Positions 6,459 to 58,473 of a stretch of DNA of 64,000 bases are shown piece after piece (within the stretch, counting starts at the first letter, position 1; each line of letters starts with the position of its first letter). The translations under genes and the position numbers were made by a program. Source of the stretch: Candidatus Pacearchaeota archaeon (GTDB taxonomy: Archaea; Nanobdellota; Nanobdellia; Pacearchaeales; GW2011-AR1); contig JAGVXI010000013.1 of NCBI GenBank assembly GCA_018303855.1, positions 34,735 through 98,734 of the forward strand. The letters run 5' to 3'. Under the pieces are notes generated by a model. The model saw nothing but the letters and a program-made list of their open reading frames with translations, was not told where the DNA came from and ran no database searches.

Positions 6459-6784
6459 TTTTTTATTGTGATTAAATGTTATCTGAGTTAATTAATATTT
6501 AACTTTAACAGTTTTAACATGCTGATATAATAATATGCTTCTTATTTTTTTATTATTAGCACTTTTATTGATTATCCCTTTTTTATCCTATATCCAATAA
6601 TTATTTTATGTTTAAATACCTTGTTGATCTTGTTGAAAGATATTTGATTTTATGATTATATTGTAAGATTAAGACTTTTTAATCTATTCTAGTTTAAGAA
6701 ATTCTATTTGTTTATATATTATATTTAACTTTTAAGTAGTTACATAATAGAAAGATTTATAAAATGAGTTGTCCCATATTTTTT

Positions 6785-8410
6785 ATGGTACAAACTATAC
6801 ACCCGGAAGTTGTAGTCAGGGCTTATGATTTAGGTGGTTTTGGCGATATTGCAGGAGCTATGAGAGTTGCGAGCCATTTTCAAAGAACAGGAACAAAAAC
6901 CTTAATTAAAGGAACATCTCATAGTGCTGTAGAAAAACTTGAAATCTTGAGCCCAGATGTAAATTTTAAAGAAAGCCAAGTTGGTTCTGATAATCATGTT
7001 ATAAAAGTAGACATTGCAGGGCATTACAAAGATGGAAGAAATAATGGAAACAATGATGTCCCCCATCATTTTACAGAAGACATGGATAACCCTTCTAATA
7101 GAAGAAAAGAAGTGCCGATTTATTTAAAAAGTGGATTACATTCACACCAACACCCCTCGCAAATCCCATTTTATACTCACATAAACGGACACACGCCTAT
7201 GTTTTACCGTCCATTTAGAGAATGGGATTTACCAAAACCAGGACAAAGAGATGCAAGAAGACAAATTTTAGAAGCTTTAGAAACAAAAAAAAGATTCGCT
7301 CTTTTTAAAAAACCTACTTCTAATCTTCAAAAATTATTAGAAGGTCAAAATAAAATAGGATTTGCCCACATATCCCCTCAAATGCAAGCATGGCCCCCAG
7401 AAAAAATTTTTGAACACCCTTATTTTCATGCTATTTATACTGCACACATATCAAAAGATAGTGATAAATTTACAATTGGTTTATTCTTAAATGGAGAACT
7501 TGAAAAAAGATTAACATCTGTTGCTGAATCAAAATATTGGAATGTTGTTGGAAGAGATGGGCAATCCACAAAATTTAACAGGGATTTGCCAACTTTATTA
7601 TTTTTAGGTTCACAACCACAAACAACAGTTACTGGGTTATTTTTATCTTCAGATATACCCAACCTAGTTACAGGAGACTTATCTTTATCTGATGCCTTAT
7701 ATGGATTAATAGCAATGGATGGACCTGCTTTTTTTTATGAAACTCCAACTTGGAAAATTCCTACCCTTACAGAATTGGGTTCAATACTCATGAAAACAGA
7801 TCCTCATTTAGCTGGAGAATTTATGGTTGGAAGCAATTCTTGTAAGATACTAAAGATAAATCAAAAAAATTCGCAAACTGGAAAAGAGATAGCTAATACC
7901 TTTTTTGAAAGAGTAGTAAATGTTTTCAGCGATAAAAAATATGCTTCTCGATATACAGAAGGTATGAGAACAGCAATCAGAAGAGAAATTCAAAGAAGAT
8001 TTGGTAATGTTCAAGTAGAAAGTAATATGAAAAGAGATTTTTATATTGTACTAGGAGCTCCTTATCTTATACAAGATGCAACTGTACAAGTTGTAGATAC
8101 ATTAAGAGCAAACCCAGAAGCATTAGCAGAAACAGAGAAAGTTAGAAGAATGCTTAAAGATGGTGTGCCAGTAAGTGTCAATGTTCACACCGGTGTTTTA
8201 GAGCCAGAAGTTACACCCTCTTTTAATTTCAAATATGGAGAACTTTCTGATTTATTATCAATTAATCCTTATCTTTATGGTTATAATAAAGATTCTAAAT
8301 CTTTAATAAAGCCAGATTATGAAGGAATAGATTATTTTTTTAACTTTAAGTATGCTCCAAAAAAACTAGAAGATTACTTATATTTTACCTTCTGTAAAAT
8401 CAATTATTAA
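6785..8410 (+). CDS. hypothetical large protein, probably leaderless start at the second Met
   Basis: 548-aa ORF (track start 6764). The TATA box at 6755-6763 sits only about 10 nt from the track ATG, so the ATG at 6785 is more plausible. No recognisable domain. Confidence 0.4.
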   Translation: MVQTIHPEVVVRAYDLGGFGDIAGAMRVASHFQRTGTKTLIKGTSHSAVEKLEILSPDVNFKESQVGSDNHVIKVDIAGHYKDGRNNGNNDVPHHFTEDMDNPSNRRKEVPIYLKSGLHSHQHPSQIPFYTHINGHTPMFYRPFREWDLPKPGQRDARRQILEALETKKRFALFKKPTSNLQKLLEGQNKIGFAHISPQMQAWPPEKIFEHPYFHAIYTAHISKDSDKFTIGLFLNGELEKRLTSVAESKYWNVVGRDGQSTKFNRDLPTLLFLGSQPQTTVTGLFLSSDIPNLVTGDLSLSDALYGLIAMDGPAFFYETPTWKIPTLTELGSILMKTDPHLAGEFMVGSNSCKILKINQKNSQTGKEIANTFFERVVNVFSDKKYASRYTEGMRTAIRREIQRRFGNVQVESNMKRDFYIVLGAPYLIQDATVQVVDTLRANPEALAETEKVRRMLKDGVPVSVNVHTGVLEPEVTPSFNFKYGELSDLLSINPYLYGYNKDSKSLIKPDYEGIDYFFNFKYAPKKLEDYLYFTFCKINY

Positions 8411-8416
8411 ACTTTA

Positions 8417-8629
8417 CTAACCAGACTTAGCCAATTCTTCATCAATTATTTGTTTAAAAGAAGAGAATGGTTGTGCTCCTTCTAAAATCTGCCCATTTAC
8501 AAAGAAAGCAGGTGTTCCTGTAACTTCTGCAGCCTGACAATCGCTAAAGTCTGTTTGAACCTCGCTTCTGAATTTTCCTGAATCTAAGCAACTTCCTATA
8601 TCATAACCTAACTCTTTAGCCCACTTTTC
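8417..8629 (-). pseudogene. 3-prime remnant of a DsbA-like thioredoxin-fold gene, truncated at its 5-prime end by the repeat element
   Basis: Translation EKWAKELGYDIGSCLDSGKFRSEVQTDFSDCQAAEVTGTPAFFVNGQILEGAQPF... aligns with the C-terminal 70 aa of the intact DsbA-like protein at 51546-52154. No start codon or N-terminal CxxC remains. The upstream boundary coincides with the start of the repeat at 8629. Confidence 0.6.
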
Positions 8630-8932
8630 TTATTTATTTTTAATATCAAAAAGTCCTTGTGTTTTACCACACCTTAAAAGGTGTGGTTTGTTTGGACTTT
8701 TGGATGCTCAAGATACCACCACACACTAAAGTGTGTGGTTTTCTTCAAGTATCTTGACATCAAGAAATCCATGTGTGTTTGGTTGGATTTATCAAGAACA
8801 ATAGTTCTTGAGTGTGCTCAAGATTCTTTGAATCTTGGCATTTAGAGACAGAAATGCTAATATTTCTGTGTAAATAACAACAATACTTAGCCGAGCATAT
8901 CTAATAATCATTAATTATAATTTGTCAAAGAC
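8629..8932 (+). mobile_element. MITE-like modular palindromic repeat, copy 1
   Basis: About 300 bp of non-coding sequence with several perfect palindromes (8666-8687 ACCACACCTTAAAAGGTGTGGT, 8719-8738, CAAGAACAATAGTTCTTG). Both ends and internal modules reappear as the reverse complement at 37700-37946. Confidence 0.55.
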
Positions 8933-8998
8933 TAAATAATCTTTACAATTCATTTACAAACTAAAGTAGATGGATTTTTTGCAGAGAAATTAAAAACT

Positions 8999-9754: not shown

Positions 9755-10090
9755 CTAATTAATTTTTATTCTGCTTACCTCTGTTTTGAGTTTTGGCAAA
9801 TCACTTTCTATTATTTTCCATACTCTGTCCATACTTACACCAAAATAAACATGGCTTAATACATCTCTAAATCCTGCTATATCTTTCCAAGCTATCTTGG
9901 GGTACTTTTCTCTAAATGAATTAGGGATATTTTTAACTGCTTCTCCAATTATCTCCAACTGCCTTATTATTGCACTTTGTCTTAATTTATCCTTAGAAAA
10001 TTTCTCGCTGTTTAACCCCCTTGAAAAATTTTCTATATCATTTATGCTTTCTTTAATGTCTTCTATAAACAAGCCTACATTTCTTTTCAT
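9755..10090 (-). CDS. HEPN/DUF86 (HepT-like) toxin component
   Basis: Small protein ending ...RDVLSHVYFGVSMDRVWKII..., typical of DUF86/HepT. It overlaps the upstream MNT gene by 4 nt. Confidence 0.6.
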   Translation of the reverse strand: MKRNVGLFIEDIKESINDIENFSRGLNSEKFSKDKLRQSAIIRQLEIIGEAVKNIPNSFREKYPKIAWKDIAGFRDVLSHVYFGVSMDRVWKIIESDLPKLKTEVSRIKIN

Positions 10091-10605
10091 ATTATTTTTA
10101 TTTCCTCTTTTAAAATATTTTCCTTTATTAAGGGTTTAATAACAGAATATTCTACTAAATCTACTTTTCTCCCAAGAATGTCCTCTAATTTTAATTTTAA
10201 CCTAATAAAACCAAGTAAACTCATGCCTTTATCATTAATTTCAACAGCTATATCAACATCACTATTCTTCTTTTGCTTGCCTCTTGAATAACTTCCAAAA
10301 ATTCCGGCTTTGGTGACTTTATTTTTCATTAAGATTTTGATTATTTTAGACTTAATTTTTTCTATTTCTTTGTTTGGCTTTGTTTTTTTAGACAATAATT
10401 CTTTATCAGCCATTTTCTCTTTTTTTAATAGTTCTGAATTTGGTAATTCAGTTCCAAGATATAACCTTCTTTTTGAGATTTTATTACCATTTCTTACAGA
10501 GATAACTCTATAATAATACTTTCTTCCATTAATGTTTCTAACTTCTGTAAATGTCATAATCTGCTTATGTCTACAATATTTATAAATCCTTCTGTGTGGA
10601 CACAA
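10087..10605 (-). CDS. minimal nucleotidyltransferase (MntA-like) antitoxin component
   Basis: GIFGSYSRGKQKKNSDVDIAVEI is the GS..D.D NTase motif. The N-terminal ~60 aa may be an extension or a mis-called start. Confidence 0.6.
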   Translation of the reverse strand: MCPHRRIYKYCRHKQIMTFTEVRNINGRKYYYRVISVRNGNKISKRRLYLGTELPNSELLKKEKMADKELLSKKTKPNKEIEKIKSKIIKILMKNKVTKAGIFGSYSRGKQKKNSDVDIAVEINDKGMSLLGFIRLKLKLEDILGRKVDLVEYSVIKPLIKENILKEEIKII

Positions 10606-20955: not shown

Positions 20956-21002
20956 ATACATATAATAATGCAAACATTTAAATAATATACATATGTATAC
21001 AA

Positions 21003-21245
21003 TTGTATATGGAGACAACAATAAGAGTAAATCCAAGAACTAAAGAAGAACTTGATGCTTTTAGGCAATACAAAAGCGAGAGCTATGATGAATTAGTGAG
21101 AAAACTTATTTATTTAGCTAAATTGGCTGAAAAAGAACCCAAACTTAGCCAAAAGACTATTCTTGAAATAAGGGAAGCAAGAGAAAGAATTAAGAAAGGA
21201 GAATTCTATACAGAAGATGAAGCTAAGAAGATTCTTGGCTTGTAA
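21003..21245 (+). CDS. RelE/ParE-associated antitoxin (same family as 37190-37411)
   Basis: TIRVNPRTKEELDAFRQYKSESYDELVRKLI parallels TIQVSKELLEKLAVMKMHEKESYESIIWDLI of the antitoxin upstream of the intact RelE. Confidence 0.5.
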   Translation: MYMETTIRVNPRTKEELDAFRQYKSESYDELVRKLIYLAKLAEKEPKLSQKTILEIREARERIKKGEFYTEDEAKKILGL

Positions 21246-34667: not shown

Positions 34668-34735
34668 GATTTATATTGGATAAAAGGATATAAAAAGGTT
34701 TCATAGGGGAAGGAGTGAGAGGGGAGGTTTAAACA

Positions 34736-37189: not shown

Positions 37190-37411
37190 ATGGATACAAC
37201 TATTCAGGTAAGCAAGGAACTGCTGGAAAAACTTGCAGTAATGAAAATGCACGAAAAAGAAAGTTATGAAAGTATTATATGGGACTTGATAGAGGACAGA
37301 ATGGAATTTTCAGAAGAAACAAAAAAGAACATCGCAAAATCTGAAGAAGAAATAAAAGCAAGAAAAACAATCTCTCTTGAACAAATTAAAAAAACTGCAA
37401 GAAGCAAGTAA
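37190..37411 (+). CDS. antitoxin of RelE/ParE module
   Basis: Small protein immediately upstream of the toxin, abutting it. Paralog at 21003. Confidence 0.55.
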   Translation: MDTTIQVSKELLEKLAVMKMHEKESYESIIWDLIEDRMEFSEETKKNIAKSEEEIKARKTISLEQIKKTARSK

Positions 37412-37660
37412 ATGTACTCTGTAGAATTATCACGCACAGCAGAAAAGCAATTTTTCAAACTTTCGGAGAGCATTAGGGAAAGAGTAATTAATGTTTTGGA
37501 AAGAATCAGAGCAAGGCCATATCATTTTGTAAAAAGAAAAGAAGGAACGCCTTATTTTATAGCCAGAATTGGAGATTATAGGGCAATTTTAAGTATTAAC
37601 AACGAACAGCTTAAGATTTATGTTATAGAAGTCGGGCATAGAAAGAATATCTATGGTTAA
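37412..37660 (+). CDS. RelE/ParE family toxin
   Basis: MYSVELSRTAEKQFFKL...GDYRAILSINNEQLKIYVIEVGHRKNIY is the RelE fold signature. Confidence 0.7.
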   Translation: MYSVELSRTAEKQFFKLSESIRERVINVLERIRARPYHFVKRKEGTPYFIARIGDYRAILSINNEQLKIYVIEVGHRKNIYG

Positions 37661-37699
37661 TTTGGTTAATGAATTGTGAAAATTATTTATTCTTTGGAG

Positions 37700-37946
37700 A
37701 ATTATAATTAATTATCATTAGCTATGCTCGGTTAAGTATTATTGCCATTTATGTCAAGATTGCCAATGCAGAAAACCATGCTCTTTAGAGCATGGATGAA
37801 TGCAATCTTGAGCATCCAAAAGTCCAAAACAAACCACACATGTCAAGAATTTTCAATTCTTGAGCACTCTCAGGAATTCACATTCCTGAAGCTTTAGTGT
37901 GTGGTAAAACGCAAGGACTTTTTGATGTTAAAGATCAATAAATAAG
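37700..37946 (-). mobile_element. MITE-like modular palindromic repeat, copy 2 (inverted relative to copy 1)
   Basis: The reverse complement matches the 8629-8932 termini (CTTATTTATT...AAAAAGTCCTTG.GTTTTACCACAC and ...TACTTA.CCGAGCAT..CTAATGATAATTAATTATAATT) and shares the internal TTGGACTTTTGGATGCTCAAGAT module. Confidence 0.55.
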
Positions 37947-37948
37947 TT

Positions 37949-37964
37949 ATGGGCTTTAGCCCAT
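37949..37964. terminator. perfect 16-bp palindrome ATGGGCTTTAGCCCAT between convergent genes
   Basis: Seen directly. It is flanked by A/T runs and sits between RelE (+) and the glycosidase (-). Confidence 0.4.
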
Positions 37965-38015
37965 AGAGAAATTCAGGTTGTCACAAAATATAATGCCCTG
38001 CACTAAAAAATCCCC

Positions 38016-51545: not shown

Positions 51546-52154
51546 TTATTTTTCTGATTCTTCTTCAATAATATTTTTAATCAGCTCTTTGTTTGCCCCA
51601 AAAACCTTTCTTCCGTTTATGAAAAAAGTTGGGGTTCCCTGAACATCTAGCATCTTTCCGTCATTTAAATCTCTTTCCACTTCGTATTTATACTTTTCAG
51701 AATCTAAACATGAATTAAATTGTTCCTTATTCAACTCGATTTGTATCGCATAGAGCTTTAAACTTTCTTTATCCAGCTTATTTTGATTTTCAAATAAAAT
51801 GTCATGATACTGCCAGAATTTTCCCTGTTCATTGGCACATTCAGCTGCTTCTGCCGCAATAAAAGAATTCTCATGTATTGTTAGGGGAAAATTCCTGTAA
51901 TAAAATACAACATTCTGTTCATTTAAGATTTCATTTATTATAGGTAATGAAGCTTTGCAGGCAGGACACTGAAAATCTGAAAATTCTATGATGATAGTGC
52001 TTGAATCTGAATTTCCTTTTGCAGGGTTTATTCCATTGCCAACATTTTTATAAATCTCTATTGCAGATTTCGGAAGACTAATGTAAATTAGAACCCCAGT
52101 TAATAATATTATAACTAACCCAATAATTACTACTCCTTTATTATCTCCATTCAT
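51546..52154 (-). CDS. DsbA-family thiol:disulfide oxidoreductase, N-terminal TM anchor
   Basis: FSDFQCPACKAS (CPAC active site) and GTPTFFINGRKV cis-Pro region. Confidence 0.65.
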   Translation of the reverse strand: MNGDNKGVVIIGLVIILLTGVLIYISLPKSAIEIYKNVGNGINPAKGNSDSSTIIIEFSDFQCPACKASLPIINEILNEQNVVFYYRNFPLTIHENSFIAAEAAECANEQGKFWQYHDILFENQNKLDKESLKLYAIQIELNKEQFNSCLDSEKYKYEVERDLNDGKMLDVQGTPTFFINGRKVFGANKELIKNIIEEESEK

Positions 52155-58203: not shown

Positions 58204-58473
58204 TTTATTCTACAATTTAATCTCCCTTCATCCCTGTTCCTTTTCGCTTCATAGCTGTATAATAATATCTGGATACCAATGTTTTTAAATTATTCATATT
58301 CATCTTTATGCCACAAAGTTATGTAACAATCTAAATTTCTCTATGGGCTAAAACCCACAGCTTCTTTATTGATTTTTAATACGGATTAATAGCCAAGGTA
58401 AATAATTATAATACTGGTGGTAGCTAACCGTATTATCAATAACATCATACCACTATTACAATTCATCCTTCTT

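Follow-up and report, generated by a model that had tools for sequence, protein, structure and literature searches.

Two inverted composite loci in a Pacearchaeota contig contain copies of a double-hairpin repeat dispersed among DPANN archaea

Two related loci in the analysed window

The 64,000-nt stretch of DNA analysed here (the window; positions 34,735 to 98,734 of contig JAGVXI010000013.1 from a Candidatus Pacearchaeota archaeon, G+C content ~32%) contains two related stretches, 8629–8968 and 37661–37975, which are inverted relative to each other and are built around a small, non-coding palindromic repeat. The minus strand was adopted as the sense strand for the first stretch (copy 1) and the plus strand for the second (copy 2). 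Copy 1 abuts the remnant of a DsbA-like gene, and copy 2 is flanked by a ParE/RelE-type toxin gene (PF05016) and a convergent GH100-like gene. The original prediction, made by reading the sequence, had described the two stretches as a modular element of 250–300 bp resembling a miniature inverted-repeat transposable element (MITE) and had correctly placed the second copy between a RelE toxin and a convergent glycosidase.

Both the positions and the inverted arrangement of the copies were confirmed. The end motifs match only at 8645–8672(+)/37899–37926(−) and 8882–8905(+)/37717–37740(−), with a chance expectation of 0 in the window, and BLAST of locus 1 against locus 2 returned an A/T-rich 5′ block (83–86% over 73–95 nt), a central block (97% over 35 nt) and a 3′ block (86–91% over 43–56 nt). 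Between these blocks, the copies consist of different hairpins, and a module comparison revealed that the internal modules common to both stand in a different order, as had been proposed. The several perfect palindromes attributed to each copy were also recovered. The window possesses 27 perfect hairpins with a stem of at least 8 bp, compared with 7–16 in total in shuffled windows, and eight of them fall into the two loci (five in copy 1 and three in copy 2). RNA folding of each strand gave z-scores of −5.3 to −9.2 against shuffled sequences; since the stems are perfect palindromes, the two strands are equally stable. No conserved open reading frame (ORF) was found inside either copy, which agrees with the claim that the element encodes no transposase.

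Read in the minus sense, copy 1 starts with an A/T-rich 5′ block containing TATA-like stretches (8881–8968; 86% over 73 nt to 37668–37740). It is followed by extra hairpin modules made of perfect palindromes (8765–8869), namely H1 (8848–8869), a mini double-hairpin unit of the form TGCCAAGATTC..GAATCTTGAGCAC plus TCAAGAAC..GTTCTTGA (8792–8840) and H4 (8765–8790). The double-hairpin core then occupies 8645–8760, as delineated by alignment and by the covariance model R1 (141.7 bits, E 4e-27). It comprises the arms of hairpin P1 (8749–8757 and 8708–8716), which enclose hairpin P2 (8719–8738), and the arms of hairpin P3 (8694–8705 and 8645–8656), which enclose hairpin P4 (8667–8686). A short 3′ tail (ATTAAAAATAAATAAG, 8629–8644), homologous to the tail module of copy 2, finally abuts the dsbA remnant.

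Read in the plus sense, copy 2 has its own 5′ block at 37668–37741, homologous to 8881–8954, and weaker similarity begins directly after the stop codon of the ParE/RelE gene at 37660. The core (37751–37926) was identified by its RNA fold and by R1 (67.5 bits), the alignment of which is interrupted by a nested insert. The arms of P1 lie at 37754–37763 and 37802–37811, P2 at 37776–37795, the arms of P3 at 37814–37825 and 37915–37926, and those of P4 at 37834–37840 and 37897–37904. The insert, a second mini double-hairpin unit (37841–37891), is nested in P4, separating its 5′ arm from the loop. Downstream of the core lies a tail module (37927–37973) with the hairpin TATGGGCTTTAGCCCATA, which is the 16-bp palindrome noted earlier after copy 2.

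This tail module (89% over 46 nt to 58334–58379) is present a third time in the window, on the minus strand and without a core, at 58334–58380 (tail plus GGGYTTTAGCCC hairpin), while its hairpin in copy 2 is the same as that serving as P4 in the repeat copies of genome JBBSYH01. The lone module lies between two co-directional genes and resembles a 3′-end or terminator module. It was also considered as an empty version of the whole flank and rejected, as only the tail was significant and the 5′-block score was reached by 14 of 500 and 125 of 500 shuffles.

When motifs of the 5′ block were used for exact-pattern scans of genome representatives, IMG/VR and JGI metagenomes, nothing beyond these two loci and chance matches was recovered, and no similarity to the block was seen in the DPANN loci described below. 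The wider family therefore does not include the 5′ block. Each locus is thus no single element but a composite, in which a family core is combined with additional hairpins, a 5′ block private to the two loci and a tail module that is repeated on its own. The copies first proposed are real, but their limits need revision: homology reaches ~8968, ~37661 and into 37927–37975, and the supposed 250–300 bp unit is a composite in which only the cores, 8645–8760 and 37751–37926, belong to a wider family.

A repeat family dispersed among DPANN archaea

The family was collected with the central 18-mer TTGAGCATCCAAAAGTCC in one-genome-per-species representatives. Among 107 matches, ~95 are complete units, and these derive from ~35 metagenome-assembled genomes (MAGs) labelled Woesearchaeota, Nanoarchaeota or Pacearchaeota. 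Another ~13 matches are bacterial and lack every other motif, a number that fits chance, since ~17 matches were estimated by hand from the collection size and the pattern length. Four viral loci, L010 and L143–L145, were likewise rejected as chance matches, and no family match was found in the phage collection.

Several genomes contain many copies with the exact 18-mer: ten each in JAUSKH01 and JBBSYH01, nine in JAHIEH01, eight in CAYNKB01 and six in CAYIOA01. For each copy, the surrounding ~8 kb was examined as a locus (numbered with the prefix L), which gave 0.68 Mb of DPANN loci in total; here, R1 detected at least 15 more copies without the 18-mer. Copies within a genome are 95% identical on average, compared with 70.5% between genomes, which is the pattern of amplification inside genomes or of concerted evolution. 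None of the copies compared with Rfam corresponds to a catalogued RNA. The window gave 0 matches to Rfam 15 at the gathering score, both loci gave only chance-level matches at E ≤ 10, and the copies in 17 other loci gave no match.

In the window itself, R1 detected only the two copies, which are not closest relatives of each other. Their P1–P2 domains are 70% alike, while the domain of copy 2 reaches 94% against L135, L102 and L037, which come from other species, and that of copy 1 reaches 85–89% against L122, L071, L068, L069 and L045. The two cores are therefore members of different subfamilies. This bears on the simplest account of the window loci, in which one ~300 bp intergenic stretch underwent segmental duplication and then diverged by indels, with no transposition. 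Such an account would explain why there are just two copies in 64 kb and why the 5′ block and the tail could be counted as shared by these two loci alone. However, the greater likeness of copy 2 to copies in other species and the separate occurrence of the tail module at 58334–58380 speak against it. Because the cores belong to different subfamilies and one tail module stands alone, the flanks look like separate modules and not like one duplicated block, and we regard a pure duplication as doubtful. The window loci may instead have arisen either by members of two subfamilies landing beside a pre-existing repeated flank, or from a duplicated locus that later exchanged its core.

Architecture and covariation of the unit

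The unit reads ATGTCAAG...CTTGAGCATCCAAAAGTCC...GGACTTTTTGAT and consists of two hairpins, P1 and P3, each with an optional inner hairpin (P2 and P4, respectively). The 5′ half has the layout (TT)ATGTCAAG-(P1 5′ arm)-..GAAAAC-(P2 hairpin)-..-(P1 3′ arm)-CTTGAGC, and the 3′ half continues with ATCCAAAAGTCC-.AAACAAAC-(P4 hairpin)-..AAC.CA-AGGACTTTTTGAT, the boundaries of the unit being ATGTCAAG...TTTTTGAT. P1 possesses a conserved foot (ATGTCAAG/CTTGAGCA) and P3 conserved arms (ATCCAAAAGTCC/GGACTTTTTGAT), while the inner hairpins are of the type AAAC-C(stem)-TTTA-(stem)G-GT. Since P2 and P4 are optional, the length of the unit ranges from ~65 to ~180 nt.

RNAalifold on a MAFFT alignment of 34 full-length copies predicted four helices, with compensatory double changes in 19 of 35 predicted pairs. 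Pairing was retained in 99.3% of the cells, compared with 81.3% in shuffled alignments and 30–45% when the partners were slid, and 252 double-change cells were observed versus 92 expected. The covariation is very strong in P1, P2 and P4, and P3 and the feet of P1 show no variation. ATGTCAAG and GGACTTTTTGAT are invariant in 78–80 copies, which is not owed to the method of collection. The stems are nearly purely Watson–Crick, and the rare mismatches are skewed, with a G.U:A.C ratio of 16:2 in the unbiased MAFFT alignment and 40:15 in 94 unique copies. The central loop reads TTTA 40 times and TAAA ten times. Together, the excess of G.U over A.C and the loop counts indicate that one particular strand is the one that folds, either as RNA or as single-stranded DNA.

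The mini double-hairpin unit of copy 1 is also present in L033, L100, L115, L124 and L130 and, as described above, inside copy 2. In copy 2, in L115 and L134 (P2), in L124 and in L033, such mini-units sit inside hairpins of the P2 or P4 type, where they separate the 5′ arm from the loop. Small loops are found in both orientations inside single genomes (TTTA/TAAA and TTTCAA/TTGAAA), and between two copies of JAHIEH01, L051:1992–2118 and L049:42–168, the whole interior of P1, linker and P2 included, is inverted. These loop flips, the inverted P1 interior and the nested mini-units point to events at the DNA level, acting on hairpins or by template switching. A minimal variant was observed at L094:3870–3922 (+), where ATGTCAA is joined straight to AAGTCC...GGACTTTTTGAT in the absence of P1; the 3′ hairpin is therefore able to persist alone.

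Genomic context and copies inside genes

Upstream of ATGTCAAG, only TT at −2/−1 (92% and 77% of copies) and a T-rich stretch at −7 to −4 are conserved, and the information content between −70 and −7 is at most 0.3 bit over ~80 copies. In view of this lack of a positional upstream signal, the units have no promoter of their own. Downstream of the unit, the sole signal is a weak TTT. A crude ORF call placed 62 of 81 copies between genes. Copy and upstream gene share a strand in 34 cases and lie on opposite strands in 36; the downstream gene is convergent in 50 and co-directional in 28. The 150 neighbouring proteins correspond to 144 Pfam families, among them tRNA synthetases, FtsZ, RuBisCO, Rad51 and topoisomerase, with no enrichment of transposases.

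Four of the ~95 copies are read through by long ORFs, two of them with Pfam domain support. In a Woesearchaeota MAG (CAYUCQ010000015), a short family copy at L131:3942–4006 lies antisense and in frame in the linker of a transketolase, between Transketolase_N (8–270) and Transket_pyr (323–466). The insert adds ~22 residues (KSKSPSGSSGLLDAQSVSKTL; extra residues KSKSPSGSSGLLDAQSVSK..), which are absent from 11 homologues (52–66% identical where aligned and ~70% across the full protein) as well as from the window orthologue; the linker of the window's own transketolase does not contain a degenerate copy either. The second supported case, L142:7657–7724, lies within a match to the Ofd1_CTDD domain (Ofd1-like oxygenase), and this match spans the insert. 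The other two copies are L105:594–685 and L124:7016–7092. In these two and in L142, the ORF that runs through the copy is longer than 160 codons; the L124 ORF has a Cys-rich zf-like domain after the insert, and the L105 ORF has no Pfam match. Copies inside ORFs are found in both orientations, and their presence in genes is hard to reconcile with dedicated RNA genes.

These data weaken the alternative, already raised in the original prediction, that the repeats are structured non-coding RNA (ncRNA) genes or cis-acting RNA modules, for instance protein-binding or 3′-end/terminator hairpins. In that case, the copy number would reflect function, and the window loci would be paralogous RNA genes driven by the TATA-like 5′ block. 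The very strong covariation in P1, P2 and P4, the G.U bias on one strand and the folding z-scores of −9.2 and −5.8 cited for the two window loci would all fit such RNAs. So would the end of the unit in a stem followed by U5, an archaeal termination signal, and the conserved A/T-rich block upstream of both window copies, although the latter is restricted to these two. On the other hand, the ~80 copies lack a conserved upstream promoter, their orientation to the upstream gene is random, their neighbours are unrelated, some lie within ORFs in either orientation, both strands fold equally well and no Rfam match was obtained. Moreover, loops and even the whole P1 interior (L051 versus L049) are flipped to their complement, a change that alters the RNA but not the DNA palindrome. 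A set of RNA genes or modules is thus an unlikely explanation of the family, even if the one-strand G.U bias still speaks for it.

Spread of the repeat and comparison with known systems

It is likely that each window locus is a composite assembled around a single copy of a repeat that is small, non-coding and non-autonomous, is dispersed in DPANN archaea (Woesearchaeales/Pacearchaeales-type Nanoarchaeota) and spreads as selfish DNA. We regard a non-autonomous mobile element as the best reading because of the nested copies, the in-frame copies in genes and the genome-specific subfamilies. The repeat would spread, or would have spread, by mobilisation in trans, through an enzyme recognising the folded single strand of one particular strand. 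Movement would then pass through a single-stranded hairpin intermediate, resembling in principle the REP/RAYT system (repetitive extragenic palindromes and their associated tyrosine transposase), the ends of IS200/IS605 insertion sequences (IS) or integron attC sites, and not DDE cut-and-paste transposition. In the window, two members of different subfamilies lie beside a private repeated flank consisting of the 5′ block and the tail module.

The designation as MITE-like holds only in a broad sense. The repeat is indeed multi-copy, non-coding, dispersed, palindromic and non-autonomous. However, it has no terminal inverted repeats, as the 5′ end ATGTCAAG and the reverse complement of the 3′ end, ATCAAAAAG, have only AT in common. 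Flanking target-site duplications were absent at every boundary offset for k = 2–8 in 80 copies, with an excess over the shuffled-partner expectation of at most ~5 copies.

The lack of inverted ends and of target-site duplications would be compatible with a palindrome-associated (PATE-type) derivative of an IS200/IS605 element, the ends of which a Y1 (HUH) transposase from another site in these genomes would move in the form of single-stranded hairpins. This origin would also fit the presence of a hairpin with conserved feet at either end, the strand asymmetry of the mismatches and the T-rich, partly conserved 5′ flank, and the unit ends in TTGAT, which we take to be the target of ISDra2. In IS200/IS605 elements, the left and right hairpins are similar and bound by the same TnpA, whereas the end hairpins of this repeat, P1 (UCAAG.../...CUUGA) and P3 (AUCCAAAAGUCC/GGACUUUUUGAU), are unrelated in sequence. 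Furthermore, none of the copies seen encloses a gene, and no Y1 transposase was found near any copy, albeit by weak tests covering ~8 kb per copy. A PATE-type derivative therefore seems quite unlikely. Integrons have been reported in Archaea, and attC-like recombination sites share with the repeat a conserved structure despite variable sequence, strand-specific folding and conserved stem feet. Here, the context is contradictory: RYYYAAC/GTTRRRY core sites and co-oriented arrays of sites separated by cassettes are absent, the copies are randomly oriented beside housekeeping genes, and each unit contains two different hairpins, so that the repeat can hardly be an integron site.

Several points weigh against a mobile repeat. 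Its mobilising enzyme was not found among the neighbour proteins of the copies within the ~8 kb examined for each, and phmmer with approximate Y1 transposase (TnpA) and RAYT queries, a weak test, returned nothing in 0.9 Mb (3304 ORF fragments). No parent autonomous IS with the same ends was seen in the 0.68 Mb of DPANN loci, and we know of none. The strong covariation, the conserved unpaired linkers and the terminal U5 run are equally expected of a functional RNA, the high similarity within genomes could also be produced by gene conversion, and the invariance of the central 18-mer is partly due to the way the family was collected. In the window, there are just the two copies with their private flanks, which means that local duplication contributed too. 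Finally, no clean pair of a filled and an empty site was obtained at close distance, so that mobility is what we infer rather than observe. In the relatives L055 and L129, a copy lies 4 nt past the stop of a gene, and the window orthologue of this gene (20987–21241) has no copy there; this is not a clean empty-site comparison because the far flank cannot be aligned. For copy 1, the closest relatives were reached through homologues of the adjacent 548-aa protein; with ≤58% identity among these homologues and gene order around them not conserved, no empty site can be defined. Identical contigs from many Rifle aquifer metagenomes all contain both loci and are 100% identical over them, and hence carry no population signal.

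In behaviour, the closest analogues of the DPANN repeat appear to be the Rickettsia palindromic elements (RPEs), the mosaics of REPs and bacterial interspersed mosaic elements (BIMEs), and organellar double-hairpin elements. G+C-richer hairpins that invade A/T-rich compact genomes, a two-hairpin architecture, nesting and occasional in-frame copies appear to be shared with the double-hairpin elements and GC-cluster hairpins in the mitochondria of fungi and sponges (compare PMC2800124) and with palindromic repeats of Methanocaldococcus jannaschii, although these genomes and sequences are unrelated to the DPANN family. The M. jannaschii repeats, which have coding potential, are those of Suyama et al. 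2005 as cited in PMC2229807.

RPEs are ~100–150 bp long, intergenic, and also found in frame in conserved protein genes, to which they add a peptide (PMC10969869, PMC2229807). They share with the DPANN repeat the nature of small non-coding palindromic repeats, the small A/T-rich genomes of host-dependent microbes and the in-frame gene copies. This likeness is one of behaviour and does not imply membership, as RPE families are Rickettsia-specific, whereas the DPANN repeat is archaeal and no sequence relationship was seen. In addition, where an RPE has one long stem, the DPANN unit has two adjacent hairpins that may each enclose an inner one, and its in-gene copies seem to be a minority (the four of ~95 described above).

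Similar to REPs, BIMEs and REPINs (paired REPs), which depend on RAYT, a Y1/HUH enzyme, the DPANN repeats are extragenic palindromes defined by structure, in which the foot is conserved and the stems vary; they have neither terminal inverted repeats nor target-site duplications, and form mosaic or modular clusters and genome-specific families. A REP, however, is a 20–40 nt imperfect palindrome following a GTAG-like tetranucleotide, which is lacking in the DPANN unit, and a REPIN is an inverted pair, whereas the DPANN hairpins differ from each other and stand in tandem. In the REP system, the RAYT gene is flanked by REPs, while no RAYT-like ORF was found near the DPANN copies in what was a weak test, and the DPANN repeat is found in archaea. 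Classical prokaryotic MITEs such as Correia/NEMIS, RUP and ERIC, and the SM elements of Sulfolobus, are mainly intergenic and sometimes form in-frame ORF fusions (PMC2229807). The DPANN repeat shares with them a length below 200 bp, the non-coding and multi-copy nature and the stable RNA or DNA stem-loops, but not the defining terminal inverted repeats or target-site duplications.

In the literature searched, no account of a repeat like this was found for DPANN archaea, which a 2024 review of prokaryotic MITEs leaves unmentioned. The family thus appears to be a lineage-wide, undescribed set of structure-defined, non-autonomous repeats, and mobile repeats of this kind would apparently be new for DPANN archaea. 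More tentatively, the repeat may represent a new type of mobile element defined by structure, which moves as the folded form of one particular single strand, has no inverted ends or target duplication, nests in its own hairpin loops, flips loops and stem interiors and occasionally adds peptides to essential proteins of these minimal genomes. The genomes of DPANN archaea are among the smallest known for cells. With at least 10 copies per ~1-Mb genome, the repeat would be selfish DNA persisting in reduced genomes, where it is able to alter proteins, the transketolase linker being an example, and may cause local rearrangements and pseudogene junctions, to which we would tentatively link the dsbA remnant. 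The combination of clean covariation, absent inverted repeats and target duplications, and strand asymmetry makes it a tractable case for finding the recognising enzyme. It also provides a lineage marker and a trap for the prediction of ncRNAs and genes.

The repeat is also a likely source of contig breaks and mis-binning in MAGs. A genuine copy lies at the very start of a contig binned as Sideroxydans (L050:43–123), where mis-binning or a chimeric contig end is likely. Further copies lie at contig ends in L093, L100 and L127, and two contigs, those of L009 and L016, are broken within copy 2 or next to it.

The dsbA remnant beside copy 1

The gene remnant at 8420–8629 (−) comprises 70 codons and matches only the C-terminal part of the DSBA (131–190 of 191) and Thioredoxin_4 (114–165 of 165) profiles. 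It is preceded by an in-frame TAA at 8630–8632. An NCBI record annotates a 60-aa version (P0157) as 'thioredoxin domain-containing protein [Candidatus Pacearchaeota archaeon]'. Its nearest homologues extend upstream of ..LK(A/K)WAKELGYDI, the point at which the remnant is truncated. A DsbA-like gene without its 5′ part, abutting copy 1, is thus as originally described, and the junction is real. The proposed cause, an insertion, fared less well, because the missing 5′ two-thirds were found neither across copy 1 nor beside copy 2 nor anywhere else in the window. A plain insertion is therefore insufficient, and deletion or illegitimate recombination must be invoked. The simplest account is that the dsbA pseudogene beside copy 1 lost its 5′ part in such an event at the repeat. 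The only other dsbA match in the window is an intact 202-aa paralogue at 51546–52154 (−), 35–54% identical to the homologues of the remnant; hence, the truncated copy is probably dispensable. The remnant opens with TGGGCTAAAG, ten bases identical to the 5′ arm of the tail hairpin (TGGGCTTTAGCCCA in copy 2) joined to the flipped form of its loop, and one may speculate that this 10-nt match acted as microhomology at the junction.

An inversion between copies 1 and 2 is unsupported, as the missing dsbA part is not next to copy 2, and two further scenarios were rejected. A role of the RNA as leader of the dsbA fragment does not fit copy 2, which faces a convergent gene. A 29-kb mobile island bounded by the inverted copies would enclose housekeeping genes (a GluRS-type synthetase, an ABC transporter, transketolase, NadA and others). 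As a separate observation, dozens of DsbA-like homologues (P0160–P0276) are called as 111-aa proteins from the same internal 'MH' start, even on long contigs, as though the N-terminal CxxC part had been systematically removed. An in-frame recoded stop, for example for selenocysteine, is one possible cause.

Neighbouring genes

Toxin–antitoxin-type pairs adjoin both window copies, at 9755–10605 (−) and 37190–37660 (+), as well as a copy in L122 (474–1578). The pair types include HepT/MNT nucleotidyltransferase, ParE/RelE with a DUF7557-like partner, and HEPN with NTP_transf_2, and their proximity may just reflect how common such pairs are in these genomes. L122 also contains an Rfam RT-16 RNA above the gathering score (1582–1748 (−), 68 bits), ~1.2 kb from the repeat copy. 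A link to the repeat was considered and rejected, with no reverse transcriptase among the six ORFs of this 4-kb contig.

The gene at 6764–8410 (+) encodes a 548-aa protein without a Pfam domain. It has 36 homologues, with at most 58% identity except for one near-identical copy. All named homologues are from Woesearchaeota or Nanoarchaeota, and the protein is a lineage-specific family.

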